Of a stretch of DNA of 64,000 nucleotides, positions 12,101 through 62,728 are shown piece by piece; positions within the stretch are counted from its first letter, which is position 1; each line of letters begins with the position of its first letter. The position numbers were made by a program, and so were the translations under genes. Under the pieces are notes generated by a model. The model searched no databases and was not told where the DNA came from. It was given only the letters and a program-made list of their open reading frames with translations. The DNA is from Victivallales bacterium (GTDB taxonomy: Bacteria > Verrucomicrobiota > Lentisphaeria > Victivallales > GWF2-50-93), in the NCBI GenBank assembly GCA_049297395.1, contig JBAQUG010000497.1:5516-69515 (forward strand), given 5' to 3'.

Positions 12101-12134
12101 GCGCAGACGGAATTCCATGCAGTCTGCGCTTTTT
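12101..12134 (+). terminator. Rho-independent terminator, + strand
   Basis: GCGCAGAC (12101-12108) pairs with GTCTGCGC (12122-12129). The stem is a perfect 8 bp with a 13-nt loop, followed by TTTTT (12130-12134). Confidence 0.7.
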
Positions 12135-12149
12135 GACCACGCATGGCTG

Positions 12150-12184
12150 AAAAATGCAGAGCGGTGACTTTGTCACACGCACTC
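12150..12184 (-). terminator. Rho-independent terminator, - strand (downstream of the CE7 gene)
   Basis: The minus-strand RNA is GAGUGCGUGUGAC-AAA-GUCACCGCUCU followed by GCAUUUUU. The stem is about 11 bp with one bulge and one mismatch. It ends 16 nt from the + strand terminator (back-to-back pair). Confidence 0.55.
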
Positions 12185-12311
12185 CCGGGTAAGGCCGAAG
12201 CTCCTGACATAAAAACAGAAATACAAGAGATAAGTTCTTAACAGGATTGCTGTTCCCAACCGCGAGGATCGCGGTGGGAGACCGTCGTCGGCAAATCATC
12301 CGAAAGCCAGT

Positions 12312-13772
12312 CTATTTCGCAAAGACCTTGTCCAGCCATCGCCATGCGCGTCGGTCGAACTCAGCCGACCAGTCGTGTCCGAGTCCCGGCAGGGCGACAA
12401 CTGTCTTGTCCTTGCTAGCAAGACGCTTGTAGACGGCCCATATGCTGGTGGGAGGCGACACCGGGTCAACCAAACCGGCATTGAACATTACAGGACAGCT
12501 GATATCAGGCGCGAAATTCATCGGATCATAGTATGCGATGCAGTGTCCGTCGACATCATCCGGCGCAGGAGGCGCGCCTCTGAGATCCATGCCGTCTGAT
12601 TTCGTCCTGTCCTTGAATTTCGGATCCCATGGCTTGTCCCATGGCTCGTCAAGGCCGTTGCATCTGGCGACCCAGTGCAGTTCCGGATAATTCGGAGAAT
12701 TCGCGATGCAGGGCACGATGGCGCTGACCCTCTTGTCCAATCCCGCGACTACTACGCTCAGGCGTCCTCCCTGGCTTCCACCTGCGGCGGCTACGCGTTT
12801 CACATCGACATCAGGCCTGGAGCAGAGATAGTCGATGGCACGGGCGGCACGCAGATACAGATCGTGGAAATAGTTCTTCTCGATCGGTTCAAAGACGAAA
12901 TTATCGTTGTATCCCGGAATCGGTTCATATTTCGGCAGATCCACATTCTGTCCATGGACCTGGACGTCGATTGCCACATAGCCATGGCGTGCGTGCTCAA
13001 GCGGGCGCGGTCTGGCGTTGAAACCCGCTCCAGGCAGGACCAGCATGGCGGGGAAAGATCCTTTGCCGACAGGTTTTGCGAGCCACGCGTATACGCGTCC
13101 GCCGTCGGGGCCCGCGAAACTGATCTTGCACGATTCCACTTCCTCGCATTTATGTCCTTCAGGATCATAGTCGGCAGGCAGGCAAGCACTCTTGAGGTTG
13201 TATTCATCAATTTCCTTGCCCTTGAAAACTTTTACTTCATCTTCAATTTTTGCATCAAGGGGAACGGTGGCGTAGTCCGCCATTGCCTTGTCCCAGAACT
13301 TGCGGAAATCCGCCGGACGTGTTTCACGGACAGGCATTTCGGAAGCCTTCCATCCGAAGACGCATATTCCATCCAATGGACGTTTCACGTTCTTGTCCGC
13401 GCTTGGGAGCCCCGTGTCGAGCAGGACCCGCAGATCATAGAATCCCGGCTGGAGATCAGTGGTGTCGATCCGGATCTTGAAACGGTTCGGAGGAAGAGCT
13501 TCGGCCTTGCCTGAACGGAACGCCTTCTGGACCATGTTGCGGTGGAGGGTCCAGGTCATGCCGACTCCGTGCAGTCCGGCCTGGCAGATGATTTCAATTT
13601 CCTTTCCGTTATCGAAAAGCAGGTCTTCCGACTGATGGCAGTAGAAGGCGAATTCGGGTTTTTGTGGTGGCGAACATTTCTCGCCATACGGCATCGCGAG
13701 ATTGAGATTCATCGCACTGGCTCCAAAATTAAGTGTGGCAACGGCGAGTGCCGTCAATATTGCTTTATTCAT
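12312..13772 (-). CDS. Secreted carbohydrate esterase family 7-like acetyl(xylan) esterase / deacetylase with N-terminal Ig-like extension
   Basis: GGSQGG nucleophile motif (AAGGSQGGRLSVV). AXE1-like blocks: LVLPGAGFNARPRP..HGYVAIDVQVHGQ, YLRAARAIDYLCSRPDVD, and C-terminal LPGLGHDW. Signal peptide MNKAILTALAVATLNFGASA. GGGGAG Shine-Dalgarno 7 nt upstream. Confidence 0.7.
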   Translation of the reverse strand: MNKAILTALAVATLNFGASAMNLNLAMPYGEKCSPPQKPEFAFYCHQSEDLLFDNGKEIEIICQAGLHGVGMTWTLHRNMVQKAFRSGKAEALPPNRFKIRIDTTDLQPGFYDLRVLLDTGLPSADKNVKRPLDGICVFGWKASEMPVRETRPADFRKFWDKAMADYATVPLDAKIEDEVKVFKGKEIDEYNLKSACLPADYDPEGHKCEEVESCKISFAGPDGGRVYAWLAKPVGKGSFPAMLVLPGAGFNARPRPLEHARHGYVAIDVQVHGQNVDLPKYEPIPGYNDNFVFEPIEKNYFHDLYLRAARAIDYLCSRPDVDVKRVAAAGGSQGGRLSVVVAGLDKRVSAIVPCIANSPNYPELHWVARCNGLDEPWDKPWDPKFKDRTKSDGMDLRGAPPAPDDVDGHCIAYYDPMNFAPDISCPVMFNAGLVDPVSPPTSIWAVYKRLASKDKTVVALPGLGHDWSAEFDRRAWRWLDKVFAK

Positions 13773-13796
13773 GAATGTCTCCCCTTTTTATTTAAT

Positions 13797-13819
13797 GTAG
13801 CACAGGCATCCTGCCTGTG
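13797..13819 (+). repeat. REP element (GTAG + CACAGGCA-tcc-TGCCTGTG)
   Basis: atGTAGCACAGGCATCCTGCCTGTG. It has an 8-bp perfect stem. It is one of four copies of the same REP. Confidence 0.75.
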
Positions 13820-14005
13820 GCATCTATTCTCTCCTGAAACTCGAGTATTTTGTTTGTAGTAGGCGAATTTATACGCCGTTATTCTATTTCAAGAACGCGC
13901 AATTAATTGCGCTACTGCCAACAAATCCAAGACAAACTTTCTCCTTCGCAAAGTCCATGGCGGACAAGAAAGTTTGAACTTCAACTAGCTTTTTAATTTT
14001 AAGAC

Positions 14006-14028
14006 CACAGGCAAGATGCCTGTGTTAC
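14006..14028 (-). repeat. REP element, inverted partner (head variant GTAA)
   Basis: The + strand reads CACAGGCAAGATGCCTGTGTTAC, the reverse complement of the REP consensus. It forms an inverted doublet with 13797-13819, spaced about 186 nt. Confidence 0.7.
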
Positions 14029-14044
14029 ATTATGTTTTTAGAAC

Positions 14045-16063
14045 TTATTTCCCCGCCGCGCCGTCGAGGAGGAATTCGTAGTTCCGGATCCACGTCGCAG
14101 TGGCGCCAGGTTCGAGCGAGACTTTCGTGAACGGCTCGCAGGACACCTGTCCCTCGCTGAGGAACACGCCCATTCTTGAGACGATGAAATCACCGCCTAT
14201 CCGGATTCCCGCCGCCGTGCCTGGCGTAGTGATGGTGGTCGCCACGTCGCGTGCGTCAGGCGCCCAGCCTTCAAGCGGGACGAATTTGGTTTCCACCTTG
14301 TCCGCCGTAACTACTAACTTGTTACCCTCTATGGTTCCAATTTTAGAGATGTCTGCGGTGGTCTTCGGCGGGAATGTGAACGATACCGTCAATCCTTTTT
14401 CCACGGGTTTCCGGTCGAGGGACATGAAGTTGTGGGCGTACTGCTCGGCGTCGATGCGCTGTTTTCCGGTGTTGGTCAGCGTGTGCTCGATCAGCAGGAC
14501 CGGCCTGCCCGGAACAAGTATGAGTTTCTTGACGTAGCGGTAGCTCCATCCACGCGGACCGTCGGCCTCCTGGACGAACTCGATACGATCCTTTTCAGCC
14601 TTAGTGGTCCACCCGAACATCTTGATTGGCCAGTAGGTGCAATACCACAGGTGGTTGGGATGGTATGGCTTCTCGTAGAGGCCGACACCCAGCTTGATGA
14701 ACGGTTCGCCGGGCTTGGCGTCGTCGTAGGCTATCGCCTCGAACCACTCTTCGCATGGACCGCAGCATTCGCCGGAGTTGAGAGGGGAGTGGACGGCAGG
14801 GGCGTCGAGGAAGAATGTGTGTCCGTCACGTTCAAGCTTGGTAATGATTCCCGCCTGCTCGAAACGGTTGCCGCGGTAGTAGCCCTTCTCAAGGTCGGGG
14901 ATGGCTACGGTCGCGGTGACGATTCCATTGGTGATGACGGTCGAAGGCCAGTCGCCGACATGGATCTTTGTGTCCATCTCCGGCAGGGCCTCGGCCATGA
15001 ATTTAACATCTCCTGGATTGCTCATGACGAGCTGCACGGACGCATCTCCGGCACTGGGAGGAATCTCGACGACCATGCGGTTGAGGCCAACCCTCATCTC
15101 ATGTGAAAAACCTTTTGTGGAAAATACCTTCGCCGCCTCATCGTACGAGCCGTTGAGTTTCCTGCCGTCGATGTAGAACGACGTGCCCTTAGGGCATGAG
15201 AGCTTGAACTTGTACTCCTGAGCATGGAACTTCATCGGTGAGAAAATATGGCTGACCAGGAATAGGGTGTCCTCCGGTGATTTCCGGGAAATGACTGATG
15301 AACCGTCCGTTGCCGGCTTAGTCTCCGACCAGGCTATCTCTTTTTTATCCTGCAGCTGCCGGATAAGTCCAACCTCATCTTTTTTCAGGAGTGCCGCCCT
15401 GACCGCCTCAACATCGCCCGATGCAAGCTCGGCAGCGCGCCACGCGGATGCGGGAACAGGAGCAAGCGGCCACGGAATATACCCAGAGAAGACAAGCCCT
15501 TTGATGGTGTCACTGATGGCGGCCGAGAAACCGCCGCCTGTCTTTTCGGAGACACATTTGACCAGCAGTTCATTCATTCCCGTCTTGAACTCGGCGGAAA
15601 AAACGGCGGAGGCGCCAGGGGTGAGCTCTCCGGCGACAGAGCCGTTCACCCATACTTTCGCAGGCACATCCGACTGGAAGGCTATTGACGCCTTGCCGTT
15701 GGCCTGGCTTTCGATGTAGCTGACGGCAAAGAATATGCCTGGTTTTTCAGCACGTCCCTTTGCAGCGGGAACTATCTTCCTGGAATTAACTTCCTGGCAT
15801 CCGCTCCAGTAAATCATCTTTCCATCCTCTCCCTGATACCGCGTACAGAAATTGCGCAGCTTCTCAGGAGGATATTCCTTCGCCATCGCCGCAGCGGCAT
15901 CGCCTCCTTCAACTGCGAAAGGGCCTATGATGGACCAATATTTACCGATTGTCTCAACGTGTCCGGCAGGCGGGAAAGTTTCCGCAACCGCGTTCGCAAA
16001 CTGCATTGACAGCGCCAGCATGGACGCGGCCAGAAGTGCAGCACCTTTTATTCTAAGACTCAT
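14045..16063 (-). CDS. Secreted protein: N-terminal copy of the shared jelly-roll module plus a C-terminal beta-sandwich domain (mutarotase/DUF4432-like? unassigned)
   Basis: Signal peptide MSLRIKGAALLAASMLALSMQFANAVA. The module covers aa 43-190. The C-terminal EADGPRGWSYRYVKKLILVPGRPVLLIEHTLTNTGKQRIDAEQYAHNF is reminiscent of aldose-epimerase-like folds (weak). GGAGGG Shine-Dalgarno at 16072-16077. The start lies 15 nt after the A2 stop. Confidence 0.6.
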   Translation of the reverse strand: MSLRIKGAALLAASMLALSMQFANAVAETFPPAGHVETIGKYWSIIGPFAVEGGDAAAAMAKEYPPEKLRNFCTRYQGEDGKMIYWSGCQEVNSRKIVPAAKGRAEKPGIFFAVSYIESQANGKASIAFQSDVPAKVWVNGSVAGELTPGASAVFSAEFKTGMNELLVKCVSEKTGGGFSAAISDTIKGLVFSGYIPWPLAPVPASAWRAAELASGDVEAVRAALLKKDEVGLIRQLQDKKEIAWSETKPATDGSSVISRKSPEDTLFLVSHIFSPMKFHAQEYKFKLSCPKGTSFYIDGRKLNGSYDEAAKVFSTKGFSHEMRVGLNRMVVEIPPSAGDASVQLVMSNPGDVKFMAEALPEMDTKIHVGDWPSTVITNGIVTATVAIPDLEKGYYRGNRFEQAGIITKLERDGHTFFLDAPAVHSPLNSGECCGPCEEWFEAIAYDDAKPGEPFIKLGVGLYEKPYHPNHLWYCTYWPIKMFGWTTKAEKDRIEFVQEADGPRGWSYRYVKKLILVPGRPVLLIEHTLTNTGKQRIDAEQYAHNFMSLDRKPVEKGLTVSFTFPPKTTADISKIGTIEGNKLVVTADKVETKFVPLEGWAPDARDVATTITTPGTAAGIRIGGDFIVSRMGVFLSEGQVSCEPFTKVSLEPGATATWIRNYEFLLDGAAGK
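15494..15937 (-). other. Shared jelly-roll module, N-terminal copy
   Basis: WSIIGPFAVEGG...EYPPEKLRNFCTRYQGEDGKMIYW...GIFFAVSYIESQANGKASIAFQSDVPAKVWVNGS...FKTGMNELLVKCVSEKTGGGFSAAISD. The order of blocks matches the C-terminal copies. Confidence 0.6.
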
Positions 16064-16078
16064 AATTTTTCCCTCCGC

Positions 16079-19000
16079 TTATTTAATATTATTGCTGATT
16101 GAAATGTCTCCGGGATCGCTGATGTAGCAGGTGAACCAGTTGGCCACCGTGCCGCCATGGGATTTCACTATCAGGATGTTCTGGCCTTTCTTAAGATGAA
16201 CCTTTGCAGGAAGCGGACGCCACCCGTTGAAGAAGCAGCCGTCATCGGCGACAAGTTCCGGTTTCCTGTCCGTCTTGAGCTGTTCGCCGTTGAGCCAGGC
16301 ATTCGCCCACCAGTCGCAGCCGATCAGTATTTCGGCATCGCGTTCATCAGGCGAGTTTATGTATGTCACCGCGTGGCAGACCCCTCTGTCCTGGACTTTC
16401 GCGCGGTAGAGGAAGCTCAATCCCGCGTTTTCGTTCATGTGCGGAATTCCGCCGCGGACTTCGTCGCTGTATTCCCATTTGAGTTTTTTCCCGCCAACGT
16501 CGAATTCAGCTTTCATGTCGGCTTTGTCCGCAGGAATATCATTTCTGGAAACTGCTTCCTTGATAAGCTCACCCTTGGCGCCGGAGTACCACTTGGTCGG
16601 GAATGGTCCGACAGTCATCCAGTTTGGAGAAGGGATAGGATGGTATTCAGGCTGGAGCGTCACTCCATAGATCCCGAACGGACTCTGCCCCTTGATTGAA
16701 AGCAGGGCTGTGCCGGCCTTCAAACTCACGACAGGGAAAACCGTCTTCTCAGGATTTCCGGGTGTCCTGCATACGGCGATCACCGGCATGTTCACGGTTC
16801 CGAGCGAGACCATCATCGCGCATGGCTTGTCGGAGCAGTGGCCTATTGAAAGCCTGTAGCGTCCGTCCACTGGAACAGGGATGTTTGCTTCGAAAATGCC
16901 ATTTTCCGCCTTGAGGATTTTTGTGAAGAGCCATTCAGGATTATATGTCGAGGAATCAATCTTCTTAATTTTTGAAGCATCCCTGAGAGTCTTCTCAAGA
17001 TCGTCGGCAGTGAGCATCAGTGCGGCTGCTATATCCGTGCCGCCGCGGTTCTCCGTCTTCAACGCGCCGATGCCGAGACGGCGGTGGAGCTGCCCCTCGG
17101 GCCATTGCGCGAGAAGGTTGAAGACCTTGATGACCGGAGTGGATGACAGGACAGTCCGCGCCCTCCACCAGTGATGCTGTTCGGCGGCATTCCACGCGTC
17201 ATTCACAGCTGACAGGAATGCTTCGCGGTCCTTTTCTGCGACGTCGTTCTTGCGCGAGCCTGAAGATATCTCATCCGCCAGCTGCTGGCAGAATGCGATG
17301 CGGTCGCGGACGAGGGATATTTTTTCAGCGGGGACTGCGATTTCAACGCCGGCTATTGCGGCTCCGCGTTTTGTTTTGAACGCCCTTATCTGGAAAGGCT
17401 TCAGGGTCATGTTGATCTTTCCTTCAGGCGCGGCAGTCTCTTCTCCTGTTCCAAGCGAGAGGATCTTGCCACAGTCTTTCAGCTGGATGCTGACAGGGAT
17501 TTCGTATGACTCGCGGTTGACGGCGTAGAAATAGAATCCGTCATCGCATTTCTTGAACCATACGGCCACCGGATCGCGGGCCGCCTCGAAAGGAATGAAG
17601 GGCTCTTTTGGAAGCTGTTCAAACTCGGCGAGCCATTCGCGGTATTCATCGGGGCGTCCGAACGTGTAGCCCATTCCGCCCTGGCGCAAGGCGCCTGAGT
17701 CCTGTTCCGCGACCGCGCATGCGAGCTTCTCCAGGGCATTGCGCCCGGCTCCTTCAGCCGCGCCGTTGTTGCCGCTGTCAGTCCTTGTGTCCTTCAGTTC
17801 CGGAAGACCGAATGCCGAAGTGTGGACCTGCTGCTGATCCTCGAAATAGGCGTTTCCAAATCCGAAGGCGCGCTCACGGCCAAACCCGAGCGCGAATTTA
17901 TCAGGGCTTGAGAGGCTGTCGCTTACTCCGGCGTCTGCAACAAGATCGCCGTGGTCGCGGCGTCCGTACGTTCCGCTTGGATAGACCGATATGCCGGGTT
18001 CGTCTGCGAGTTTCGCAAGATCCAGCCCGATCTCCAGCAGCGCACCTTTCTCTGTTCCGAAATATGAACCGAAAGTCAGATCCATTCCCTGTGCTGCATC
18101 TCCGTAGTAGGGGAGATAGAGGACGGCTTCGGGATTTGCCTTCCTGATCCTGTCGCGGATCTGGCGGTAATAGTCCAGCATGCGGCCGTTGCGCCAGGCA
18201 ATCCACTTTGGCAGCATCTCCTTTGATGTGAGGAAATCGAAGCGCTTCTCGAAACGGTCTGGCGAACCCGCCTCTCCGGGCACCTTGATTCCGCTGTCCT
18301 TCTGGAACTGCGACATGTCCCAGTCGCCATATCCCCAGTTCAGGCTGGGAAGACCGTTCCAACCCTGCCACACCCATGACATCAGGCGCAGTGACACGCC
18401 GGAAAAAGCCGGTGTATCCGCCAGCTTGTCCGACAGTTCGCCTACGATCTTGATATATTTTCCCTGGATCGCCGGATGCAGCGGATTCCAGGTTGAACAG
18501 AACCAGCTGCCTCCACCGCCCATTGAGCTTGTGCCGAGACGGCTCCAGATGTAGAGGTCCTCCATCTTCGGATCAAGCTTGTCGACGATTTCAGCATTGA
18601 ACCAGGCCTGTCCGGAAAGGTGCAGCTCCGGGATGTACTTCATTCCGAATTTCTCGCACATGAGGGCTACGATGCGCGGAGCGTCGTACGGCTGCACGAA
18701 CCAGCCCTCCAGTTCACTTGAGTTGTATGTCAGTCCCTGGTAGATGGCCTCGGTAGGGGATACGGCGTTGAAGCCGTGGTACTGGCAGAGCCGCAGGTAG
18801 CGTTCAATGGCCAGGAAGTCTTTTGCAATCGGGGTAAGCTCCTTCGGAGGTACAGCATGCTGCAGCCAGCGCGTGGGCTCCTCCATCCAGTGGATCATAA
18901 GCCTTCCTTCGGGACGCGTTGCCGGGCCTCCGACAAGACCGTCTTCAATTTTATATACGCGGATTTTCGAGGCCGCCGCCCGCATCCCGGGATTCTTGCT

Positions 19001-20272
19001 GAGAATTGCAGCCCTGACTTTCGTGCCGCGCGCCCAGAACAGAACTTTTTCGGTGTGCATCTTATTGGAAATATCGAAGCAGTCGCCTGTCTCATATCCG
19101 CCATAGAGCTGGCATGACATGTCTTTCTCCGGTTCAGCCACGAAGACATTCACTGTCCTGCGGTCGTCGTCAGGATAATCCACTTCCAGAAGGTAGAGTT
19201 CCTGTTTTTTTGGCACGTCGATGTCGTATGCGAACCCGGAATTGTATTTCAGGTGGCCGGGCAGTTTCGGGGGTGACGGAAGTTTGACATCGGTATTGTC
19301 TCCGCCTTCGCGGTATTCGCCGGCTGCGGATTTCGCAATCCGCGTAGGTTCGGTGACTTCCCAGAATTTCTCGTTCGCCTTTATTTCCTTGCCCATGTCC
19401 TTCTGGGTGACGCAGTCGATGTCATGGATCAATGTCTTGCGCATCTCTTTTGGAAATCCGGCATTTTTAGTGTCGACAACTGCGAACTGTCCGGCGCGGA
19501 ATTCGCTCGGATGCAGTAATTTCCCATCGACTTTCGCCATGACCTGGAAGACGCCTTCCTTCGGGCATTCGATCTTGACCGTCTTCGTCTTGGGTTCATC
19601 TCTGGAGGAAAACTCCACATCGCCTGCCGCCTGCAGCGGGGCTTCAGGAGCCAGAAGATTTTTCAAAAAGAGTTCGTAGCGTGTACTGGCTCCTGGCATG
19701 CCGCCTGTCACTTTGATCTTGTAGCTTTCGCCGGCACGGATTACATCATATCCGTCGCGTTCAGCCGAGATGGAGCATTCAGGCCTGCCCTTTGCTGGAA
19801 CCAGTTCAAATGCGGCCGGCAGGATACCGGGGAATCCGAGACGGCGCAGACGCAGGACATGCTTGCCTTTTGTCAGCCAGAGATTGCATTCCTTGTACCA
19901 GCGTCCCTGTTCGCCCGGACGGGCCTTTGCTTCGATGTCGTCATTCTCGGAGATCACAAAGTTGAGGACAGTTTTCCCGTCGACAAATAGATCGCGTGGC
20001 CACCCGGGGACACCATCTTTTTCCAGCAGCTCGAACCAGCCGTCGGCAGGGATGTCGATGTCGTATTCCGCCCAGCCGCACATCTCGTTTATGATGCCGT
20101 TCTTCTTCTTCTCCGCCAGCTTCGCCTCGTCATTCGAATACCATTTGATCAAAGACCGGTCGAAACTCCATACGTCCCGTTTGACTACGGGTTTTGACTC
20201 TGTGCCCTGCGAATAAACGGCGGAGAGCGACATGAAAGCCAGAACCGCGATCATCAATGCTTTTTTCATCAT
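16079..20272 (-). CDS. Giant secreted GH-like protein, paralog A2
   Basis: The ORF runs to 20317. The start at 20272 (MMKKALMIAVLAFMSLSAVYSQG) is chosen because its first 8 codons match the A3 start almost base for base (ATGATGAAAAAAGCATTGATGATCGC versus ATGATAAAAAAAGCGTTGATGATCGC). Family blocks: FAYDIDVPKKQELYLLEVDYPDDDRR, NWGYGDWDMSQFQKDSGIKVPGEAGSPDRFEKRFDFL, FYFYAVNR. Confidence 0.85.
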   Translation of the reverse strand: MMKKALMIAVLAFMSLSAVYSQGTESKPVVKRDVWSFDRSLIKWYSNDEAKLAEKKKNGIINEMCGWAEYDIDIPADGWFELLEKDGVPGWPRDLFVDGKTVLNFVISENDDIEAKARPGEQGRWYKECNLWLTKGKHVLRLRRLGFPGILPAAFELVPAKGRPECSISAERDGYDVIRAGESYKIKVTGGMPGASTRYELFLKNLLAPEAPLQAAGDVEFSSRDEPKTKTVKIECPKEGVFQVMAKVDGKLLHPSEFRAGQFAVVDTKNAGFPKEMRKTLIHDIDCVTQKDMGKEIKANEKFWEVTEPTRIAKSAAGEYREGGDNTDVKLPSPPKLPGHLKYNSGFAYDIDVPKKQELYLLEVDYPDDDRRTVNVFVAEPEKDMSCQLYGGYETGDCFDISNKMHTEKVLFWARGTKVRAAILSKNPGMRAAASKIRVYKIEDGLVGGPATRPEGRLMIHWMEEPTRWLQHAVPPKELTPIAKDFLAIERYLRLCQYHGFNAVSPTEAIYQGLTYNSSELEGWFVQPYDAPRIVALMCEKFGMKYIPELHLSGQAWFNAEIVDKLDPKMEDLYIWSRLGTSSMGGGGSWFCSTWNPLHPAIQGKYIKIVGELSDKLADTPAFSGVSLRLMSWVWQGWNGLPSLNWGYGDWDMSQFQKDSGIKVPGEAGSPDRFEKRFDFLTSKEMLPKWIAWRNGRMLDYYRQIRDRIRKANPEAVLYLPYYGDAAQGMDLTFGSYFGTEKGALLEIGLDLAKLADEPGISVYPSGTYGRRDHGDLVADAGVSDSLSSPDKFALGFGRERAFGFGNAYFEDQQQVHTSAFGLPELKDTRTDSGNNGAAEGAGRNALEKLACAVAEQDSGALRQGGMGYTFGRPDEYREWLAEFEQLPKEPFIPFEAARDPVAVWFKKCDDGFYFYAVNRESYEIPVSIQLKDCGKILSLGTGEETAAPEGKINMTLKPFQIRAFKTKRGAAIAGVEIAVPAEKISLVRDRIAFCQQLADEISSGSRKNDVAEKDREAFLSAVNDAWNAAEQHHWWRARTVLSSTPVIKVFNLLAQWPEGQLHRRLGIGALKTENRGGTDIAAALMLTADDLEKTLRDASKIKKIDSSTYNPEWLFTKILKAENGIFEANIPVPVDGRYRLSIGHCSDKPCAMMVSLGTVNMPVIAVCRTPGNPEKTVFPVVSLKAGTALLSIKGQSPFGIYGVTLQPEYHPIPSPNWMTVGPFPTKWYSGAKGELIKEAVSRNDIPADKADMKAEFDVGGKKLKWEYSDEVRGGIPHMNENAGLSFLYRAKVQDRGVCHAVTYINSPDERDAEILIGCDWWANAWLNGEQLKTDRKPELVADDGCFFNGWRPLPAKVHLKKGQNILIVKSHGGTVANWFTCYISDPGDISISNNIK
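16082..16621 (-). other. Shared C-terminal jelly-roll module, copy in A2
   Basis: WMTVGPFPTKW...SPDERDAEILIGCDWWANAWLNGE...FNGW...HLKKGQNILIVKSHGGTVANWFTCYISDPGD. Confidence 0.7.
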
Positions 20273-20355
20273 CGTCATAATCCCTTCGTTTCTGTTAATA
20301 TATTTTTTTAAAAACATCTTTGCTTAATCGAACCATTCAATGATGCGTCTCTTCG

Positions 20356-23300: not shown

Positions 23301-24198
23301 ATTCCGGAACGCGTGGCAGATTGGTAGTCGTGATCATGTCGACGCCGCGCCGGCGCAGCATGATCAATGCGTGCGGAAGGGTGTGGGTGCCGAAATTCAT
23401 AGGGTATTGGATGCCCTCGGTCATGGCTCCCTCGGCGCTGATCCCGTTGTCCAGGAATTCACGAAGTTTCGCGGCCGCCGCCGCCGCAGTAGGAGGGAAA
23501 TACCCGTCCTCCCCTTCGATGGCGAGGTCGCAGAATAGCTGTCCTATTGCGCATAGGCATGTCCAGTTGGTGCAGTTGCGGCCGTTGGCCATGGGACCGT
23601 CCAGCCACCAGGAGGAGGCGTACATGTCGAGGGAAGGCTTGCCGACCATCGAGGCGAGGATGCGCCGCGACCGTCCGCGTTCCTCGTCGTTCAACAGTTC
23701 ATACAGCCAGTCGTAGGCCAGGGCCGACTCCATGTCGCCCCAGTTCTCCTCGGCCTTGAGTTCGCCGTCAGGAGGGAATCCCGACATCCAGATGCGGAAC
23801 ATCTCCAACGCCATGCGACCGTCCTCCTTGTCGCCGGTGATCTGATAGAGCAGGGCGGCTTGCCGGAGCTGTGGCCGGAAACCGCTCCACTGTTTCCGGC
23901 ATTCCTCGAGCCAAGCCGGGTTCATCTTTTTCAACTCTTCGATGATGTTTCCGGCGAATGCACTGCCACGCAGATTCTTCACCAGTTCCTTGCCGACCGT
24001 CGTCTCCGCCCTGGCCCGGATGGCCGGAAGATCACCCTTGGAGAAAAGCAGGCGTGGATGTGTTCCTGCCGGGAGCGGGGATTCCCCGATGGACTCGACG
24101 GGGGCGTCTGCAAAAAGTGAAATGGAACTTGAAAAACAGATGGCGCCGGCGGCGCATGCCGCGGCCACCCATTGACTTGAGATCCGCATTTTCTCCAT
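20356..24198 (-). CDS. Secreted polysaccharide lyase, heparinase II/III-like (alpha/alpha toroid + beta-sandwich), with Ig-like repeats and the shared C-terminal module
   Basis: HPRLLFSKGDLPAIRARAE at the N-terminus. NCTNWTCLCAIG is an NW block. RAGHTHADQGSFCLASNGTCFIADSGYGNYSSRDHNIVHIDGKAQ is the Hepar_II_III signature pattern. Signal peptide MEKMRISSQWVAAACAAGAICFSSSISLFADA. Confidence 0.7.
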   Translation of the reverse strand: MEKMRISSQWVAAACAAGAICFSSSISLFADAPVESIGESPLPAGTHPRLLFSKGDLPAIRARAETTVGKELVKNLRGSAFAGNIIEELKKMNPAWLEECRKQWSGFRPQLRQAALLYQITGDKEDGRMALEMFRIWMSGFPPDGELKAEENWGDMESALAYDWLYELLNDEERGRSRRILASMVGKPSLDMYASSWWLDGPMANGRNCTNWTCLCAIGQLFCDLAIEGEDGYFPPTAAAAAAKLREFLDNGISAEGAMTEGIQYPMNFGTHTLPHALIMLRRRGVDMITTTNLPRVPEWLAYEALPWGYEGFDYNKSNGEFQSAAFASFIGKELGPMGRWVYQNSVKAGLGVLPDTTVALINGWPEEKAGDRSALPPGRWFADRGLVFCRNGWGVDDAVFFFNTSPLRAGHTHADQGSFCLASNGTCFIADSGYGNYSSRDHNIVHIDGKAQEQIEGGSDAFIRSVDFSSYADILDSDLKLAYDRVLDGDIIGPWHWRPYNPVRQADRRCLFLRGASGPVVLVADDLRADDQEHEYDWLARTVAGNTLRVDGRRFTIQERFGGKVLRSMTNGAAMAWRADRVAGGVYHGWALVRGEPFVQSWCSNTFVVNGISVAAAFGRGAYRQGWNWLPILPGGKAEITIADGSPLRFELICGSGGRVAAAVFTRDQTWTPGDDLPVSGDPFIVFTAEDAGPADANRPPWEKIDTRRGILDGVFLGNQNVKLNVDRAKTTGYPVLHAVQRGINGRFLSLLAPHSENDGRSIELPRDGDGQMALVRSAAGVDLVGGSVNGVPVKGELQTDASMASVSFLSRNQSVPIGYAAVNGSLLICRGIEYVRSGNGVFHVSNDGTDLVVRGTPGAVARCLRLGATQLVRNGVRSPLPSGEVVTISIPSLPAKWEVSISPDGRRVDVTGDGPLPLRVEAAKAVQLTVNGIGRYFVRPEKNSPFLQAVLWNGSDLYRYRDELSASELLPAMKQTKAVKMVEASSLDPKLPKTKVLVSEDGVFEMSLTPPGPGKYRLVVETFVSGAQTVEAQISISGKSVAGIRSEPGRLNTARTDVVIKESPCPFMIKGPAVLALAGLRLEPVYRDLPAPAWRFIGPFKSGFAPGGKEAEAVRAAMSTVYGPEKEINFEAVYKGMDDKDLKWDNRDDTSAPYMQSGLNFTHILKLPRGGVCFAVTFINSPDDRSSQLVLSCDWWANAYINGELVDSERAASQVQQDGASFTSTNATCARIRLKKGVNTLLVKCHGGSGGSRFAAQIIDPGDLGYSASKDKFPEQKH
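20359..20913 (-). other. Shared C-terminal jelly-roll module, copy in the lyase
   Basis: WRFIGPFKSG...YGPEKEINFEAVYKGMDDKDLKW...INSPDDRSSQLVLSCDWWANAYINGE...RLKKGVNTLLVKCHGGSGGSRFAAQIIDPGD. Confidence 0.7.
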
Positions 24199-24305
24199 CC
24201 TTCCATTTTAAATTTTTCTTGAACTCAAACCCATTCATCCAACAATCCATCCGTCATCCCGTGGAATGACTGTGTTCCAGCTCCATTCCTTGCGCGATAT
24301 ATTGA

Positions 24306-24314
24306 GTATATCAT
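24306..24314 (-). promoter_or_regulatory. Extended -10 element TGATATACT (internal promoter candidate for the lyase gene)
   Basis: The minus strand reads ..catgttacaTGATATACTcaat. This 9-mer is identical to the three full promoters at 30016, 54088 and 62468. There is no good -35 (GCCGAA at the 17-nt spacing). Confidence 0.4.
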
Positions 24315-24390
24315 GTAACATGCATTCTTCGGCATCGGATGGCAAGTCCAACCCGTGATTTTTTCACGCATTTATTTGCAGGGCAGTAAT

Positions 24391-24483
24391 GGCTCAGGCT
24401 TTATAAAAACGAGGGGGCGGTACCGTACTTTTCCCTCGGGCTTCGGGAAGAAGTCCTGGGACCGACCCCGTAAAGGCTGAGCC
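24391..24483. repeat. Structured intergenic repeat R1, copy 2
   Basis: ggctcaggctttataaaaacgagggggcggtaccgtacttttccctcgggcttcgggaagaagtcctgggaccgaccccgtaaaggctgagcc. The core matches 7496-7566. The outer stem (GGCTCAGG../..GGCTGAGCC) differs in sequence from copy 1 but is again self-complementary. Confidence 0.7.
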
Positions 24484-24515
24484 AATACGCAGGACGGGAG
24501 TACCTTGCCGTGATC

Positions 24516-27500
24516 CTATTTTCCCGTCTCCGGCGGTGTCGGGCTGTACTTCTGGTCTCCCGGATCGCTGACCGCGAAATTGGCATTCCACCCATCCCGG
24601 CCTGTCGTTGTCTTCACCAGCAGCTTGTTCCATCCGGCGTTCAACAGGATCGTCTTGCTGGCGAATTTCCCCCAGGGGCCGGAGATGTCCAGTACCGGCT
24701 CGTCGTTCAGCCAGACCCTGCCATCCCAATCCATGGCATAATACAATATGACGTTTCGTCTGCCAGGGCTGTATATCCACGAAGCAAGATACGCGATCCC
24801 GCTCCCCGGGATGCCATAATTTTTGATATGGACATAGGGGTAGTATTTTTCCAGCAGCTTGACATACTTGTCATCGCCGATGTCAATCTGCCTCCACTGG
24901 ATAGACTTGCCATCCATGCCCTTGTATTCGGAGGAGAGGCTGATCTCCTTTTCGGGAGGGAACGTCGCTTTCGCATAACATTCGCTTCGTTTCTCCCACG
25001 TGTACGGCTTCCCGTCCTCCACATTAAAATCAAAGAGTCCGATCGCGCTCCACTTCTTAATCGTGACAGGAGGCAGGAACGCCATTTCCATCGAACTGAT
25101 CGCCAGTCCGTTGGCGCCTTCGCTGGTCAATGTCATGTCATAAAGACCGCTGTTTATTGACAGCGGCACCGACAGGACATTGCGGATATGCCTTGTCTCG
25201 CCGTAGCCCTCTCCGATTGTTCCAACCGTCTTTCCATTGAACCCGACCTTGATCGGGCCGTAACCCTTTCCGAACAACCCCCTTATCCGGAGTTCGAACT
25301 GCCCCGCTGTCGCCGTGCTCGCATGGTAAACCGTCTTGCCGGACGGTATCACGACAAAATCCTCCTCCGTGTATTGAGCTAATTTTGCGAGTTTCGCAGC
25401 ACCCTCCGGCTTGAAGTTGTGCTGGAGCAGATATCCGGCATTGCCGGAGCAGACGGCATAGTCCTCCATGCCATCCGGCCAGCCAAAGGCCTCCAGCCAC
25501 CATCTGCGCTCCGAGGCGATGCGCTGGATGAGAAATCCGGCCTTCAGATACTCTTTGTCACGCCAGGCCTTATCTACAGGATTGAATGAGCCGGCGAATG
25601 TCTCAATCGCATCGCGTCTGTCCCATTCGCAGGTGTCCTTCACTCCAGCCGCGCATCCGCCCGCGCCGACGAAGACATGTTTCATGTCCCCGGCGGCGGC
25701 GTTTATTTTCCGCAGGAACTCAACCTGTTTGCCAATCCGTTCAATCTCGTCTGGCCGCACTTGGATATTCATCCCTTCAATTGATGTGATTCCCTTTGCC
25801 GCGAAAAGCGCAGGCATGAACGGATCCAGCGACACATTGACCACATTCCCCTTTGCCGCGAGCGTTTCGCCGCTGACAAGATCTTTCACCCCGTCCGCGT
25901 CCTTGGGCAATGAAATCTCAAGTTCCCTCCTATAGGGCGTCTGGTTGACCAGATAGAACACGAGCTCTTTCCCATGAAATATCCAACCGGTCTTGTCTTG
26001 TCTCTGGGCCGACCAGCAGACGACTACCGGCTGATCTGAGCCTTTACCGGCGAACCGCTCATACTTCAAGTCCGGGATCGCCCGGAATACCCGCACGAAG
26101 GAGCGCAGTCCCTCGTCAACTGGCGAAATGCCCCAGAGTTCACCGCAGACTATCCTGTCAAGCTGTCCTGCCGCCAGCGCTTTGGCCGGCTGCTCCAGCT
26201 GGCGGGGATGTCCGATCAATGCGAAGTCATGGCACAGATTCCTAATATAAGCCGTATCGCCAGGCGTAAAGTTCTCAATATTGCCGCGTATCTCCGCCGG
26301 TTCACGCACATCGAAGTTTGCGAACGCGACAGGGTCGAATCCATTCAATTCAATGTTCTCGTCATTGCCGCCCCTGAATTTCTCCCATTTTTCAAAACCA
26401 ATATCCCGGCGCCCGGCAAGGCTGGCATAATCAATTCCGCTTTCACGTGCAGGCGCTATTTTCCATGCGGCGTAGGCGCCGCTGTACAGCCGGGCGGAAG
26501 GCGCATTGCGGCGCAGTTCCGCCACTCCTTCCTCAAGCAGGCTTTCTACCTTCTGGCAGCGCCAGTCAATCCATTTGTCGCGGAGATCGTCCTTGAGCAG
26601 GTGTTCCCGGCGGAGTTTGAACCGCTCATCCCCGGCATTGGCCACACCGATGGAAACTCCTGTCTCCTTTTCAAAGAGAGACACCGTAAAATCATCGTAC
26701 CCGTTGGAGTCCGAAATATAAAAGGGGTCGAATCCGGACTGCCATGGAGTCCACCACCTCAGACGCACCCCGGCAAAGGACGGGAAGCCGCCGTACTGCC
26801 TGCTGATTTCTCCGAGCACGGTGGTGAAATACTTGCGTGACGCAGGATGCGCAGGATTGAGAATGCGATGCGTCCATCCGCTTCCTCCGTCGTAGCACTT
26901 CCCATTGGAGTCGGTTACGAAAAGTTCGTCCGCCGCCTCATATCCGCATTTGCGGGCGAAATGCTGGACGGCTCCTTCCGACAATCGGGAAACCATCAGG
27001 TCCGCCACCATCCGGGCATTGTTCTTCTGTCCGGTCATGAGCAGCATCTTGAAAATATCGCGTTCAATGGGGTCGACCAGCCGCCCGCGGCCTCCGGTAC
27101 TGTAAACATCCTGTCCTTTGGGAAGATGGGGGACGCCCTGCAGGAAAGTCATGTTGTATGACAATGCCGGCACCATGATCAAGTTATCGCCCCGATATCG
27201 GGACAGGCGGGTGTATCTTTCAGCTCCGGCATGCAATGCACGCCAATCCTGATAGAATCCTCCTCTGAGATTGCTGAGCAGGCCGGATATAAAATCATTG
27301 CCCTCCCAAAGCGGAGGCATTGTGCTTTCAAATGCCCATATATTGGTTTGTTCGCTGTCGGCGCCGAATTCCCTTTTCTGCTCCCAGCCGCCTGCCGGTT
27401 CCGGCAATGGAGGAAGACCTTCCGGCAGCTCATACAGTTCAATTTTTGAAATGGCACCCTCCCTGTTCAACCTGGAATTATGGTTGCCGTTGTGGCAGAC

Positions 27501-29294
27501 CGTAAAAACATCGACCGCCCCGCTGTTCGGCCACACAAGGAATGAAAGGGTGCTGAAGGGACCTGAGACGTCCGCATTTCCGGAGTCAAGCATGGAGCCA
27601 TTGGCCCAGCTTGTAACCTGATCAATGGCCTGTACCACGACTATCCTTCTCTTGTCGTTGGGAATTGTAGCCACTACAAGATGCGCCTTCCCGGGCTTTT
27701 TTACTTTCAACGTATATGCAAACCAGTCCGGAGAGATATAACTCGCCCCCGATTTTTTTTCCCCTTCCCTGACACGGCGGTATTTCTTGGTTTCTGCGTC
27801 TTTTATATAGTAGCATCGCCTGTCCAGTTCGACGCCGGCATTGCCGGTAAGGCGGTAACGCCCAACCGGGCTGTCCACCACCCGGCTCGTCCCGTTGTCG
27901 CGGAACTTATGCTCCGCATCCTGCGTCAATGTGCAGTCAACGCTGTCAACCAGCTCCCTGCGGATCTCGCCAGTGGAAGCGCCGCCTTTGGGCAACGGCA
28001 TGGGGGTCGGGTCAATAACCACGAACGCCCAGGGTCCGTCGATGATCTTGCCGGATGCGTCCTTGACCGTGTATTCAAATGCGCCTTCAGTATTGCTGGG
28101 ATAGCTTATGCTTGCTGACAGGTGGCTGGCTTCCTTCGCGAGTTTGCCTTCCCCGGTCCAGACTGGTGTCTTGCTCCCGCGCTGTTCCTTCACCTCGAGG
28201 AGGAAACGTTCCCCGGCACCGACCATTTTCTCCACTTTTATTGTCAGTGGTTCGTCTTTCGCCAATATCATGTCATCGCGATCCATGCCGTTCTTGTCGA
28301 CCGCATGGATACCGATGTCAACCGTGTCGCCGGAATGGATTTTGGAAATGCCGATACGCATCTGCGGCATGAGCTCATCCATTTTATCCACCCAGGGATA
28401 CGGGGAATCGACACGGTAAATTGCCAGCGTGTGCTTTCCTGCCTTGAGATGGCGCAACGCTCCCGCCCGATGGAGGAAATCAAGGGCGTAGCCTTGTTTC
28501 ACGCCAGGATCAAGACGGCGTTCCCCCTGGAGATAGAACAGTGGCTTATCGTCAAACCAAGCCTTGAACCAGCGAGGCGGATCAATAGGACCGATTGCTA
28601 TTTCATACAGCCCCTCGTCTTTGATTTCAAAACTGGTAGTGCGCTGGTTGAAGATTTCATCCCGCCATTTTTCCAGAAGGATATCCGGGCGCCATGCCAG
28701 CTTTTCCTCCGAGTCCTTCACCGTGTGCGACAACGCCTCGGGGGGAATCAGTTTGAAATCGGATGCACCAGGCTTTTGCCACTTTATAACAGCCTTCATC
28801 AGTTCGCGGCTTGATTTCCTTGTCGCATCAGGTCTGGCGCCGTCATATTTCAAATAGAGGGTAATGGGAACAGTCCCGGCATCCAGCCGGATCTTACCTG
28901 TGCCATCAACCGGACACTTTATCCCATTGACTTTCAACTCCGACTCCACTTCCTCAATCTTGAATTTATATTCACCTTCTGTAGGGATGGAAATGCTGCT
29001 ACGGCAGGCCATGGACCAGCCCTGGGCACGATGGAACTCCGCGCCTTTCGCCGGATCGCTGTTTGCCGCCGGCCACTTCAACTTATTGATATCCGCACTG
29101 ATATCCGCGCCATTGGCGACAAAACTGCCGCCGTAAAACCAGAAGGTCGGCTCTCCATAGTAGTGGACTACCCACCCCGGGGAACTGGACTGTTGTGCGT
29201 CAGGCTCAGCAGCATGACAAAAGAGCAGAGCGCCAAACGAGATGCAAATGAGGATCAATTTCCATAACGGTTTACTTCCTGAAAGGTTCTCCAT
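24516..29294 (-). CDS. Giant secreted GH-like protein, divergent paralog A5, with N-terminal PA14-like domain
   Basis: Signal peptide MENLSGSKPLWKLILICISFGALLFCHAAEP. PA14-like region GWVVHYYGEPTFWFYGG...WSMACRSSISIPTEGEYKFKIEEVESELKVNGIKC. Family blocks: FAYTLKVKKPGKAHLVVATIPNDKRR, GAISKIELYEL, NGYDDFTVSLFEKETGVSIGVANAGDERFKLRREHL, WIDWRCQKV, VFYLVNQ. Confidence 0.8.
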   Translation of the reverse strand: MENLSGSKPLWKLILICISFGALLFCHAAEPDAQQSSSPGWVVHYYGEPTFWFYGGSFVANGADISADINKLKWPAANSDPAKGAEFHRAQGWSMACRSSISIPTEGEYKFKIEEVESELKVNGIKCPVDGTGKIRLDAGTVPITLYLKYDGARPDATRKSSRELMKAVIKWQKPGASDFKLIPPEALSHTVKDSEEKLAWRPDILLEKWRDEIFNQRTTSFEIKDEGLYEIAIGPIDPPRWFKAWFDDKPLFYLQGERRLDPGVKQGYALDFLHRAGALRHLKAGKHTLAIYRVDSPYPWVDKMDELMPQMRIGISKIHSGDTVDIGIHAVDKNGMDRDDMILAKDEPLTIKVEKMVGAGERFLLEVKEQRGSKTPVWTGEGKLAKEASHLSASISYPSNTEGAFEYTVKDASGKIIDGPWAFVVIDPTPMPLPKGGASTGEIRRELVDSVDCTLTQDAEHKFRDNGTSRVVDSPVGRYRLTGNAGVELDRRCYYIKDAETKKYRRVREGEKKSGASYISPDWFAYTLKVKKPGKAHLVVATIPNDKRRIVVVQAIDQVTSWANGSMLDSGNADVSGPFSTLSFLVWPNSGAVDVFTVCHNGNHNSRLNREGAISKIELYELPEGLPPLPEPAGGWEQKREFGADSEQTNIWAFESTMPPLWEGNDFISGLLSNLRGGFYQDWRALHAGAERYTRLSRYRGDNLIMVPALSYNMTFLQGVPHLPKGQDVYSTGGRGRLVDPIERDIFKMLLMTGQKNNARMVADLMVSRLSEGAVQHFARKCGYEAADELFVTDSNGKCYDGGSGWTHRILNPAHPASRKYFTTVLGEISRQYGGFPSFAGVRLRWWTPWQSGFDPFYISDSNGYDDFTVSLFEKETGVSIGVANAGDERFKLRREHLLKDDLRDKWIDWRCQKVESLLEEGVAELRRNAPSARLYSGAYAAWKIAPARESGIDYASLAGRRDIGFEKWEKFRGGNDENIELNGFDPVAFANFDVREPAEIRGNIENFTPGDTAYIRNLCHDFALIGHPRQLEQPAKALAAGQLDRIVCGELWGISPVDEGLRSFVRVFRAIPDLKYERFAGKGSDQPVVVCWSAQRQDKTGWIFHGKELVFYLVNQTPYRRELEISLPKDADGVKDLVSGETLAAKGNVVNVSLDPFMPALFAAKGITSIEGMNIQVRPDEIERIGKQVEFLRKINAAAGDMKHVFVGAGGCAAGVKDTCEWDRRDAIETFAGSFNPVDKAWRDKEYLKAGFLIQRIASERRWWLEAFGWPDGMEDYAVCSGNAGYLLQHNFKPEGAAKLAKLAQYTEEDFVVIPSGKTVYHASTATAGQFELRIRGLFGKGYGPIKVGFNGKTVGTIGEGYGETRHIRNVLSVPLSINSGLYDMTLTSEGANGLAISSMEMAFLPPVTIKKWSAIGLFDFNVEDGKPYTWEKRSECYAKATFPPEKEISLSSEYKGMDGKSIQWRQIDIGDDKYVKLLEKYYPYVHIKNYGIPGSGIAYLASWIYSPGRRNVILYYAMDWDGRVWLNDEPVLDISGPWGKFASKTILLNAGWNKLLVKTTTGRDGWNANFAVSDPGDQKYSPTPPETGK
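24519..25052 (-). other. Shared C-terminal jelly-roll module, divergent copy in A5
   Basis: WSAIGLFDF...FPPEKEISLSSEYKGMDGKSIQW...SPGRRNVILYYAMDWDGRVWLNDE...LNAGWNKLLVKTTTGRDGWNANFAVSDPGD. Confidence 0.6.
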
Positions 29295-29343
29295 TTTTCA
29301 TTTCCCCTTGTTTTTTATTCAAAATTTGATTTGTTTAAATTGC

Positions 29344-29955
29344 TTACAAATCACCAGGAACAGGATAATCCTTGCTGGTAAGATAATAATTCATATCCCA
29401 GGAAGGAAAGTTACCGTCGAAATTCCCTTCAGGATTGTCGGGACATGTGAAAAACTTTGTATGGCCGCCATTGGGCTTCAGGTTTTTCGTGATGTCCAGG
29501 CCTACAAGAGGGGCAATCTTAAACATCCAATTGTATGCTTTTGCGGTCGAACCGGGAAGATTCGGGGTCGGGGTCGTATCGGCAATATGCTCGTTCCAGT
29601 CCCCCGCATAAAGAATATTGGCGGCGTCCATCTGCCGCAGGGTGTTTTTACAGCTAATTTTCTTCGCTGTATCCTTCGCGCTTTTCAGCGCGGGCAGCAG
29701 CATTGCAGCAAGAATTGCGATGATCGCAATCACCAATAAGAGCTCAATAAGCGTAAACACTTGTTGAACTTGCCTCCGCTTCCGCTTCGGGCAGAACTGC
29801 CCGCTGGCTGCGGCTGGTACGGTCACCAGGGGTTCTATTATCCGCCGGAGCAATAAGATGAATGCAAGATGCCGGATGCAGGTCGCTAGATTAGAATGTC
29901 TGGCGTCCTGGCTCCTGGAAAAAAGCTTCTTCCCCGCCCCAGTCTTGGTATCCAT
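29344..29955 (-). CDS. Prepilin-type N-terminal methylation domain protein (short pseudopilin-like), P2; true start uncertain
   Basis: [45 protein letters not shown]. The ATG at 29955 leaves about 70 aa before the FTLIELL motif, with no closer ATG. The next gene (A5) starts 49 nt after the stop. A consensus promoter sits at 30016-30044. Confidence 0.75.
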
Positions 29956-30015
29956 CGGACACGCCCTCCAATATTAGGATATACAGGTATAAATATATTA
30001 TATCAATATAAAGTC

Positions 30016-30044
30016 AGTATATCAATGTATCATGGCAAAGTCAA
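30016..30044 (-). promoter_or_regulatory. Sigma70-type promoter TTGACT-N17-TATACT with TG extended -10 (drives the P2-A5... operon)
   Basis: The minus strand reads TTGACTttgccatgatacatTGaTATACT. The spacer is exactly 17 nt. The predicted TSS is near 30009, 54 nt upstream of ATG 29955. Confidence 0.65.
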
Positions 30045-30085: not shown

Positions 30086-30463
30086 TCAGTGAATATTTGC
30101 CTTGTAATTTACACCCGGCAGACTGCGGAAATGATTATCCTGCGTCCATAGGATTGCCCCATGGGAACGTGCAGTTGCATAGATCAGGCTGTCCGCCATG
30201 GGCAACTTGTACTTCAGGCTGATTAGAGCCGCACTGAGAGCCACGTCTTCAGTAATGTCCACAATGAGCCCTTGTTTCATCTGGGCTACGGCTTGAAGGG
30301 CACGCGCTTCATCGGCTGCAATATTGACCTTCTTGAAGACCTCGTATAGACAGATAACCGGCACAATCAATGCATCCGTTTTCTCAATGGGGCTTGTAAA
30401 ATAATCGGCATTGGCTTCGGCAAAGAAATATTCGATCCATCCCGATGTGTCAACAAGGTTCAT
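30086..30463 (-). CDS. vapC: PIN-domain ribonuclease toxin VapC
   Basis: MNLVDTSGWIEYF (Asp5), LYEVFKKV (Glu), and DSLIYATARSHGAILWTQDNHF (Asp..Asp) are the canonical PIN acidic residues. There is a 4-nt overlap (ATGA) with the upstream antitoxin gene. Confidence 0.85.
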   Translation of the reverse strand: MNLVDTSGWIEYFFAEANADYFTSPIEKTDALIVPVICLYEVFKKVNIAADEARALQAVAQMKQGLIVDITEDVALSAALISLKYKLPMADSLIYATARSHGAILWTQDNHFRSLPGVNYKANIH

Positions 30464-62681: not shown

Positions 62682-62728
62682 ATTCTCCCATTCCTCGAAA
62701 TTAAGATGGTACATGCTAAAGCACGTAC

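Follow-up and report, generated by a model that had tools for sequence, protein, structure and literature searches.

A 64-kb stretch of DNA (hereafter, the window) from a metagenome-assembled genome (MAG) of an uncultured member of the Victivallales (Lentisphaerota) carries six genes that face in the same direction on the minus strand of the region studied here (12312-30044). In the order of transcription, they code for a pseudopilin-like protein, the giant protein A5, a polysaccharide lyase, a second giant protein of the same family (A2), a protein of 672 amino acids (aa) and an acetyl esterase similar to carbohydrate esterase family 7 (CE7) (Table 1). All six products match GenBank proteins (MFZ2657767-MFZ2657772) on one 69.7-kb contig. 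The genes are separated by 49, 317, 38, 15 and 272 nucleotides (nt), the third gap being 83 nt if the GenBank start of A2 is used, and no gene on the opposite strand interrupts them. These positions and gaps agree with a first-pass annotation of this DNA, which had read the region as a single operon transcribed from a consensus promoter at 30016-30044. That promoter is present, and both long gaps hold the repeats that had been placed there, i.e. the R1 element, whose outer inverted arms give exactly the coordinates 24391-24483, in the 317-nt gap and an inverted pair of repetitive extragenic palindromic (REP) units in the 272-nt gap. The claim that five of the six proteins have signal peptides was likewise borne out, as judged by hydrophobicity and an AxA heuristic alone: signal peptide-like N-termini are found in all five non-pilin proteins, and these enzymes or binding proteins are predicted to be exported via Sec.

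The single operon itself is a different matter. The co-directional genes, the promoter P1, three tight junctions (49, 38/83 and 15 nt) and a promoterless 272-nt gap agree with it, whereas the 317-nt gap, with the R1 hairpin followed by a run of five U residues (U5) and a candidate internal promoter (P2), looks like a seam. We suggest, with moderate confidence, a model of two adjacent transcription units on the same strand, in which the pseudopilin-like gene and A5 form the first unit and the lyase, A2 and 672-aa protein genes, the REP doublet and the esterase gene the second. The tight junctions all lie within the proposed units, and co-transcription across them is the default expectation.

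Table 1. Coordinates of the genes, regulatory sites and repeats described in the text (window numbering)
Feature	Position	Strand	Description
Promoter P1	30016-30044	minus	TTGACT, 17-nt spacer, TGaTATACT (extended -10); strong, sigma-70-like
Pseudopilin-like gene	29344-29955	minus	203 aa; MFZ2657772.1
A5	24516-29294	minus	1592 aa; giant protein, predicted to be exported
R1 palindromic repeat	24391-24483		ends defined by outer inverted arms; core 24399-24480 (82 nt)
Candidate internal promoter P2	24305-24313	minus	extended -10 TGATATACT, 107 nt upstream of lyase ATG
34-nt repeat	24213-24246	minus	in presumed 5' untranslated region (UTR) of lyase gene; 21-nt exact core TGGGTTTGAGTTCAAGAAAAA
Polysaccharide lyase	20356-24198	minus	1280 aa; GenBank start 24189 is the fourth codon; MFZ2657770.1
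A2	16079-20317	minus	open reading frame of 1412 aa; GenBank start 20272 gives 1397 aa; MFZ2657769.1
672-aa protein	14045-16063	minus	predicted to be exported
Inverted REP doublet (REPIN/MITE-like)	13794-14031		occupies 238 nt of the 272-nt gap ahead of the esterase gene
CE7-like acetyl esterase	12312-13772	minus	486 aa; MFZ2657767.1
GC-rich hairpin	12254-12279	minus	35-60 nt past esterase stop, without U-tract
Hairpin CCGGCTTTGCCGG	11927-11939	minus	T-rich tail; kept in orthologous locus L054
Shared module copies	16082-17002, 20359-21300, 24519-25400, 50988-51899, 58174-59100, 4899-5807, 15491-16063

Promoters, repeats and proposed transcription units

P1 is the sole full promoter match inside the 17.7 kb, and a second site (TTGATA-17-TATAAT at 30025-29997) overlaps it. 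The window has exactly three TTGAC-N18-TATACT sites, compared to 0.19 expected, and P1 is one of them; the other two lie upstream of a pseudopilin gene at 54048 and of an A-family gene at 62430. All three full promoters have a longer block, GATAyAkTGATATACT, in common. Because the pseudopilins encoded behind two of them are only 51% identical, the conservation of this non-coding block argues for a function as promoter or as promoter plus operator. Within the block, the 9-mer TGATATACT is present in four exact copies in the window, while 0.13 are expected, and all four are intergenic, on the minus strand and upstream of minus-strand genes. Three of the copies sit in the full promoters. The fourth is P2, the extended -10 that had been reported in the 317-nt gap; it is present there, but at 24305-24313 and not one base further on at 24306-24314. 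The similarity of P2 to the full promoters reaches past the 9-mer, with GTTACA-TGATATACT compared to GATACATTGATATACT. The promoter at 54116-54088 starts only 35 nt past the stop codon of the preceding GH116 gene on the same strand, which argues that same-strand arrays in this genome are subdivided.

Between the A5 stop codon and P2 lies R1. On the minus-strand RNA, R1 has a long imperfect hairpin (24470-24414), followed by CUCG and the U5 (24409-24405); hairpin and U5 span 46-111 nt beyond the A5 stop codon, and P2 follows about 90 nt further on. Folding of the region gave a minimum free energy of -51 kcal/mol (z = -3). The core is 85% identical to 7490-7571, and further copies are present in two other Lentisphaerae MAGs, in the loci L052 (105-213) and L053 (84-198), with a mean identity of about 81%. 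In the consensus, the hairpin has 22 pairs, and the U5 follows it in three of the four copies. One compensatory pair was found in the inner stem and two more were seen by eye in the outer arms (GCGTCAG/CTGACGC compared to GGCTCAG/CTGAGCC). L052 has the same layout as the window, i.e. a gene end, R1 and the next gene on the same strand.

In the model of two units, transcription of the first unit would start at P1 (30044-30016) and cover the genes for a truncated pseudopilin-like protein and A5, and the R1 hairpin and U5 would terminate or at least attenuate it. The second unit would start from the extended -10 P2 and comprise the genes for the lyase, A2, the 672-aa mutarotase-like protein and the CE7-like esterase, with the REP doublet as a passenger insertion within the transcript. 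Some read-through from the first to the second unit is likely, which would make the whole a complex operon with an internal promoter.

Several observations weigh against this model, and some of them speak for a single 17.7-kb operon transcribed from P1 alone, in which R1 and the REP doublet would be neutral or mRNA-stabilizing passengers and the TGATATACT copy at 24305 a non-functional remnant. P2 is without a usable -35 element (TTGGAC sits 35 nt upstream). The U5 of R1 starts 4 nt past the stem, R1 was not called as an intrinsic terminator in a pattern-based scan, and the R1 copy at 7490-7571, flanked by two plus-strand genes of another co-directional array, is reversed, an orientation in which it would not terminate. 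Moreover, the promoter and terminator scans used an Escherichia coli-type consensus that may mislead in Lentisphaerota. The uninterrupted row of six genes on one strand and P1 as the only full promoter also favor a single operon. Against it, TGATATACT, which is otherwise found only in the three full promoters, is very unlikely to occur by chance in the 317-nt gap in the right orientation, the extended similarity of P2 would have to be accounted for, and a hairpin with U5 separates the A5 stop codon from P2. We consider a single operon rather unlikely, and less likely than two units or a complex operon. The reversed copy at 7490 also bears on R1 itself: it argues that R1 is a dispersed palindromic repeat, and a dedicated terminator was rejected because orientation is inconsistent across the copies. 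In the 317-nt gap, R1 happens to be oriented so that it could terminate transcription. A known RNA family was rejected as well, since Rfam searches at gathering thresholds gave no match in the window, and the 317-nt gap and the DNA downstream of the esterase gene showed chance-level similarity only. For a REP-like repeat, about 81% identity across three Lentisphaerae MAGs is unusually high, and R1 may be an RNA or a DNA element.

The second long gap, between the 672-aa protein and esterase genes, has a different content. The arms of the doublet are two REP units, AATGTAGCACAGGCATCTTGCCTGTG, in inverted orientation (13794-13819 and 14001-14031), which together give a stem of about 28 bp (z = -7.3); each has a perfect palindrome of 19 nt, CACAGGCA-N3/4-TGCCTGTG. 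A second doublet is present at 62570-62684, between a gene end and a promoter, and L052 has a single unit. REPINs are short palindromic units in inverted pairs that are found in several intergenic copies, with a cognate RAYT transposase in the genome. The doublets described here resemble them in the palindromic units, their inverted pairing, the several intergenic copies and the long hairpin fold, and differ in that the two spacers are unequal (53 and 181 nt). From its sequence, the 272-nt gap is explained by insertion of the doublet: without it, the gap would be about 34 nt, and 21 nt separate it from the ATG of the esterase gene, which has its own ribosome-binding site (GGGGAG). In the orthologous locus L054, the counterparts of the 672-aa protein (77% identity) and the esterase (78% identity) are encoded on either side of a URO-D-like gene, with 268 and 235 nt between the genes, and the esterase gene there has a different palindromic repeat ahead of it. 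A decayed copy of this URO-D gene as the origin of the 272-nt gap was rejected for want of any tblastx similarity. URO-D-family genes lie beside 672-like genes in both L049 (12780-13850) and L054 (2612-3733); in the window, the REP doublet takes that place.

L054 is at the same time a point against the two-unit model, as its esterase ortholog follows the 235-nt gap and the extra gene, and the esterase gene could form a separate unit. Three or more units, with the esterase gene transcribed alone from a promoter within or close to the REP doublet, would fit this locus, the 272-nt gap and the position of the other doublet ahead of a promoter, yet we consider them improbable: no minus-strand promoter-like site was found in the scan of 13773-14044, a promoter inside the doublet was rejected because it gave no match and its best hexamer pair has a spacer of 13 nt, the doublet ends so close to the esterase start codon and leaves so short a gap when removed, and about 20 and about 110 nt lie between the upstream gene and the esterase orthologs of L019 and L020.

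For the second unit of the two-unit model, the CCGGCTTTGCCGG hairpin downstream of the esterase gene is a possible end. Non-coding blocks 3' of the esterase gene (11918-12232) are conserved with L054 (5600-5900); one of about 80 nt contains a GCTTCGGCC hairpin and another the CCGGCTTTGCCGG hairpin, and they could represent a small RNA or a conserved 3' UTR. Two further repeats were observed. The 34-nt repeat of the presumed lyase 5' UTR recurs at 57721-57754 (core 57734-57754), beside a small open reading frame on the minus strand (about 57973-57787), and two independent Logan assemblies break exactly at its copy at 24213-24246. Intergenic palindromic repeats of a third family (ACTTTAGTGTGTCTTGG...ACGCTGAAGC...) lie at 58024-58093 and in L054 at 3817-3885, upstream of the esterase ortholog.

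Whichever way the region is transcribed, the operon claim itself is of minor importance, as long same-strand clusters of genes for carbohydrate-active enzymes (CAZymes) with internal promoters are common; the interest is in the individual parts. Sites similar to TTGAC-N8-GATAyAkTGATATACT are found at 30016-30044, 54088-54116, 62468-62496 and 24305-24313, and each unit behind them has an A-family gene. A promoter/operator-like block ahead of four units that contain A-family genes suggests a common regulon.

Proteins of the cluster and their relatives

A2 and A5 are two of five A-family paralogs in the window, the others being encoded at 1638-5810, 45911-50983 and 58171-62430. They had been described as a pair of giant paralogs; they are paralogous, but share only 21% identity, and the nearest paralogs of A2 (37% identity) are elsewhere in the window, at 58171-62430 and 45911-50983. 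With so low an identity, recent duplication of one from the other was rejected. A5 is the most divergent member, with 21-26% identity to the other A paralogs and almost no close relatives. The homologs of A2 are all annotated as hypothetical; the best of them (62% identity) is annotated as a protein of an Armatimonadota MAG, and a fragment with more than 90% identity is present in another Victivallales MAG (MFA6292266.1). A2 has no Pfam hit, A5 matches GHL10 (PF02638) with 21.6 bits, which is under the cut-off of 27.9, and the paralog at 1638-5810 passes this cut-off with 42.6 bits, while several other A homologs carry PF02638. A sequence search of the PDB found no relative of A2, A5 or the A2 family profile. 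An AlphaFold model of A2 aa 470-1100 (predicted local distance difference test score (pLDDT) 90) has a (beta/alpha)8 barrel, a beta-sandwich and a helical tail. Foldseek searches with this core gave GH13 enzymes and the GHL10 protein Cwp19 as the best matches, with modest template modeling (TM) scores. E479, D665 and E826 are invariant across 23 homologs and, on our reading of the secondary-structure listing of the model, would lie at strand ends. We suggest that the A proteins probably act as glycosidases with a TIM-barrel core, and that this core in A2 and A5 is remotely related to GHL10. GHL10/PF02638 proteins, such as Cwp19 of C. difficile (PMC5765458) and DogH (PMC9967864), have in common with A2 the (beta/alpha)8 barrel followed by a beta-sandwich. 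The A proteins differ from them in their length of 1400-1700 aa, with large N-terminal regions and a C-terminal module, and have no characterized member.

This C-terminal module of about 300 aa, with the motifs GPF, DWWANAxLNG and LLVKxHGG, ends not only A-family proteins but also the lyase and a GH29 fucosidase, and it forms the N-terminal part of the 672-aa protein. No Pfam family covers it, and it is rare, with 199 cluster representatives among 1.84 billion proteins at E <= 1e-3.

The call of the lyase in the first-pass annotation holds. The protein matches Hepar_II_III_C (PF07940) with 34.3 bits at a cut-off of 24, and its best PDB matches are PL35 and PL21 lyases, with E-values to the PL35 members of 3e-7 to 7e-6 over partial stretches only. 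Its residues N211, Y265 and H412 align with N187, Y241 and H397, the catalytic Asn/Tyr/His residues of the PL35 enzyme GAGase VII (PMC12088678), and the triad of PL35 is thus conserved. We infer that the lyase cleaves uronate linkages by beta-elimination. A heparinase II/III-like catalytic part is followed by a middle region of about 500 aa without assignment and the shared C-terminal module; ~800 residues lie outside the catalytic part. With the PL35 glycosaminoglycan lyases GAGase II and VII (PDB 8KHV/8KHW; PMC12088678) and heparinase II (PL21), the protein shares the signature of the heparinase II/III fold, the triad and a GHTHxDxGSF motif. By contrast, the similarity is very distant (E about 1e-6), and the protein is, at 1280 aa, twice as long and has the extra region of ~500 aa and the shared module. 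When representative genomes were scanned with peptides of the lyase, no relative was detected.

The 672-aa protein had been annotated as a jelly-roll protein. This fits its N-terminal third only, i.e. the copy of the shared module (aa 1-190). The conserved C-terminal domain, by contrast, has a galactose-mutarotase-like fold, with Foldseek matches to 3K25, 3Q1N and 3NRE at target TM-scores of 0.60-0.64 and pLDDT values mostly of 80-96 in this part of the model. The protein has no sequence match in Pfam or the PDB. H415, H544 and E643 are invariant or near-invariant.

The assignment of the esterase to CE7 is upheld by a match to AXE1 (PF05448; E 1e-34) and by CE7 structures as the best PDB hits (E 1e-22), with the qualification that the protein is CE7-like. 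CE7 enzymes are defined by the motifs RGQ, which contributes to the oxyanion site, and GHE. The esterase has HGQ aligned with the RGQ of 6AGQ and GHD in place of GHE, while the nucleophile motif GGSQGG and the C-terminal His align with 6AGQ. With the CE7 acetyl xylan esterases/cephalosporin C deacetylases (PDB 6AGQ, 1L7A), it therefore has the alpha/beta-hydrolase core, GGSQGG and the aligned His in common, and it differs from them in the two motif replacements, a signal peptide (by the heuristic) and about 200 additional residues at the N-terminus. It would be expected to remove acetyl groups.

The first gene was annotated as coding for a pseudopilin, and the protein does have the N-terminal methylation motif (N_methyl, PF07963, aa 67-87; 23.7 bits at a cut-off of 21.2), but lacks the conserved C-terminal third. 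It ends ~95 residues early, without the N-x-F-x-DGH block that is conserved in seven aligned paralogs and homologs, and it has an unusual leader of 66 aa and Val instead of Gly before the Phe of the motif. Because the identical sequence is present on three contigs, the truncation is not an assembly error. The FTLIELL(V/L) methylation motif and helix and the position at the head of enzyme genes are as in DUF1559/prepilin-type proteins of Planctomycetes-Verrucomicrobia-Chlamydiae (PVC) bacteria, from which this copy differs in the missing C-terminal third, the Val and the leader. Four pseudopilin-like copies are present in the window; three times they lie ahead of enzyme genes, as they do in several other loci (e.g. 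L003, where three pseudopilins precede a lyase). A literature search on pseudopilin or DUF1559 genes in glycan loci of PVC bacteria retrieved nothing relevant.

Recurrent partners and a possible target glycan

Comparison with other loci, which the first-pass annotation had proposed as a check, supports some of the associations in the cluster. A-family genes recur beside genes for GH29 fucosidases with the shared module, 672-like genes and genes for CE7-like esterases (65-84% identity), and these esterase orthologs adjoin A-family or GH29 genes. The A2/672-aa adjacency is also recurrent, and one protein (P0003) is a fusion of an A2 ortholog and the C-terminal domain of the 672-aa protein. The associations of the lyase and A5, on the other hand, do not recur, in a comparison with relatives too distant for the set as a whole. 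Based on these recurrent partners, A-family, 672-like and esterase genes, together with GH29, would form a conserved functional core, and the lyase and A5 would be local additions. The orthologs of the lyase (about 42% identity) are found in other contexts, with pseudopilins, DUF4838 and sulfatase genes, and never beside A-family genes in the loci compared; this fits a seam at the A5-lyase junction.

The glycan-degrading character of the cluster is well supported. In view of the lyase and the esterase, its target could reasonably be an acetylated, uronate-containing glycan. The window also encodes GH29, GH116, GH39-like and GH31-like enzymes and a sulfatase; among these, the GH29, sulfatase and GH116 genes of the neighborhood hint at a fucosylated, possibly sulfated polymer. 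It is possible, if doubtful, that the genes are neighbors in a CAZyme-rich island and do not serve one substrate, the lyase acting on a different glycan from the A-family/esterase/672-aa set, and this would be compatible with any of the transcript models. The unrelated contexts of the lyase orthologs, the GC content of the lyase gene (0.61 compared to 0.55 in its neighbors) and the many other CAZymes in the window point in this direction. By contrast, the rare module at the C-terminus of the A proteins and the GH29 enzyme is found in the lyase too, and the lyase gene is only 38-83 nt away from A2.

The cluster resembles CAZyme clusters and polysaccharide utilization loci (PULs) of Gram-negative bacteria in its co-directional genes for exported lyase-, esterase- and glycosidase-like proteins and in the LacI, GntR and AraC regulators nearby. 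However, it differs from PULs of the Bacteroidota type. No Pfam family of a SusC/SusD-like pair or a TonB-dependent transporter was found among the 26 window proteins scanned, and the units are often headed by a pseudopilin gene (DUF1559-type). Most of the coding mass, moreover, is in families without a Pfam model. We tentatively put forward, as a possibility that we hold to be less than probable, that the cluster is part of a lineage-restricted, undescribed glycan-degrading system that combines a new, GHL10-distant glycoside hydrolase family (A), a rare module shared by three catalytic classes, mutarotase-like and CE7-like partners and pseudopilin-headed units under one promoter/operator type. 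If so, the shared promoter type would mark a common regulon, perhaps with a pilus-like apparatus for export or capture. SusC/D systems play no part in the degradation of complex glycans by Victivallales and related PVC bacteria, and the bulk of the coding capacity described here lies in families without assigned function, i.e. the A family, the shared C-terminal module and the mutarotase-like partner. The recurrent partnerships and the shared promoter motif provide testable groupings for enzyme discovery and for studies of how the attack on glycans is organized and regulated.

Other genes of the window were noted in passing. The regulators mentioned are encoded at 44247-45359 (LacI-type), 43168-44232 (GntR-type) and 56815-57690 (AraC-type). 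A VapB/VapC-like toxin-antitoxin pair (30086-30668; PIN domain, E 2e-18) lies between a GH31-like gene and P1; it has its own promoter-like site (30718-30690), and there is no terminator-like signal between vapC and P1. A Laminin_G_3-like gene (33493-34380, 295 aa), with a GC content of 0.42 compared to 0.51-0.57 in its neighbors, may be a recent acquisition.

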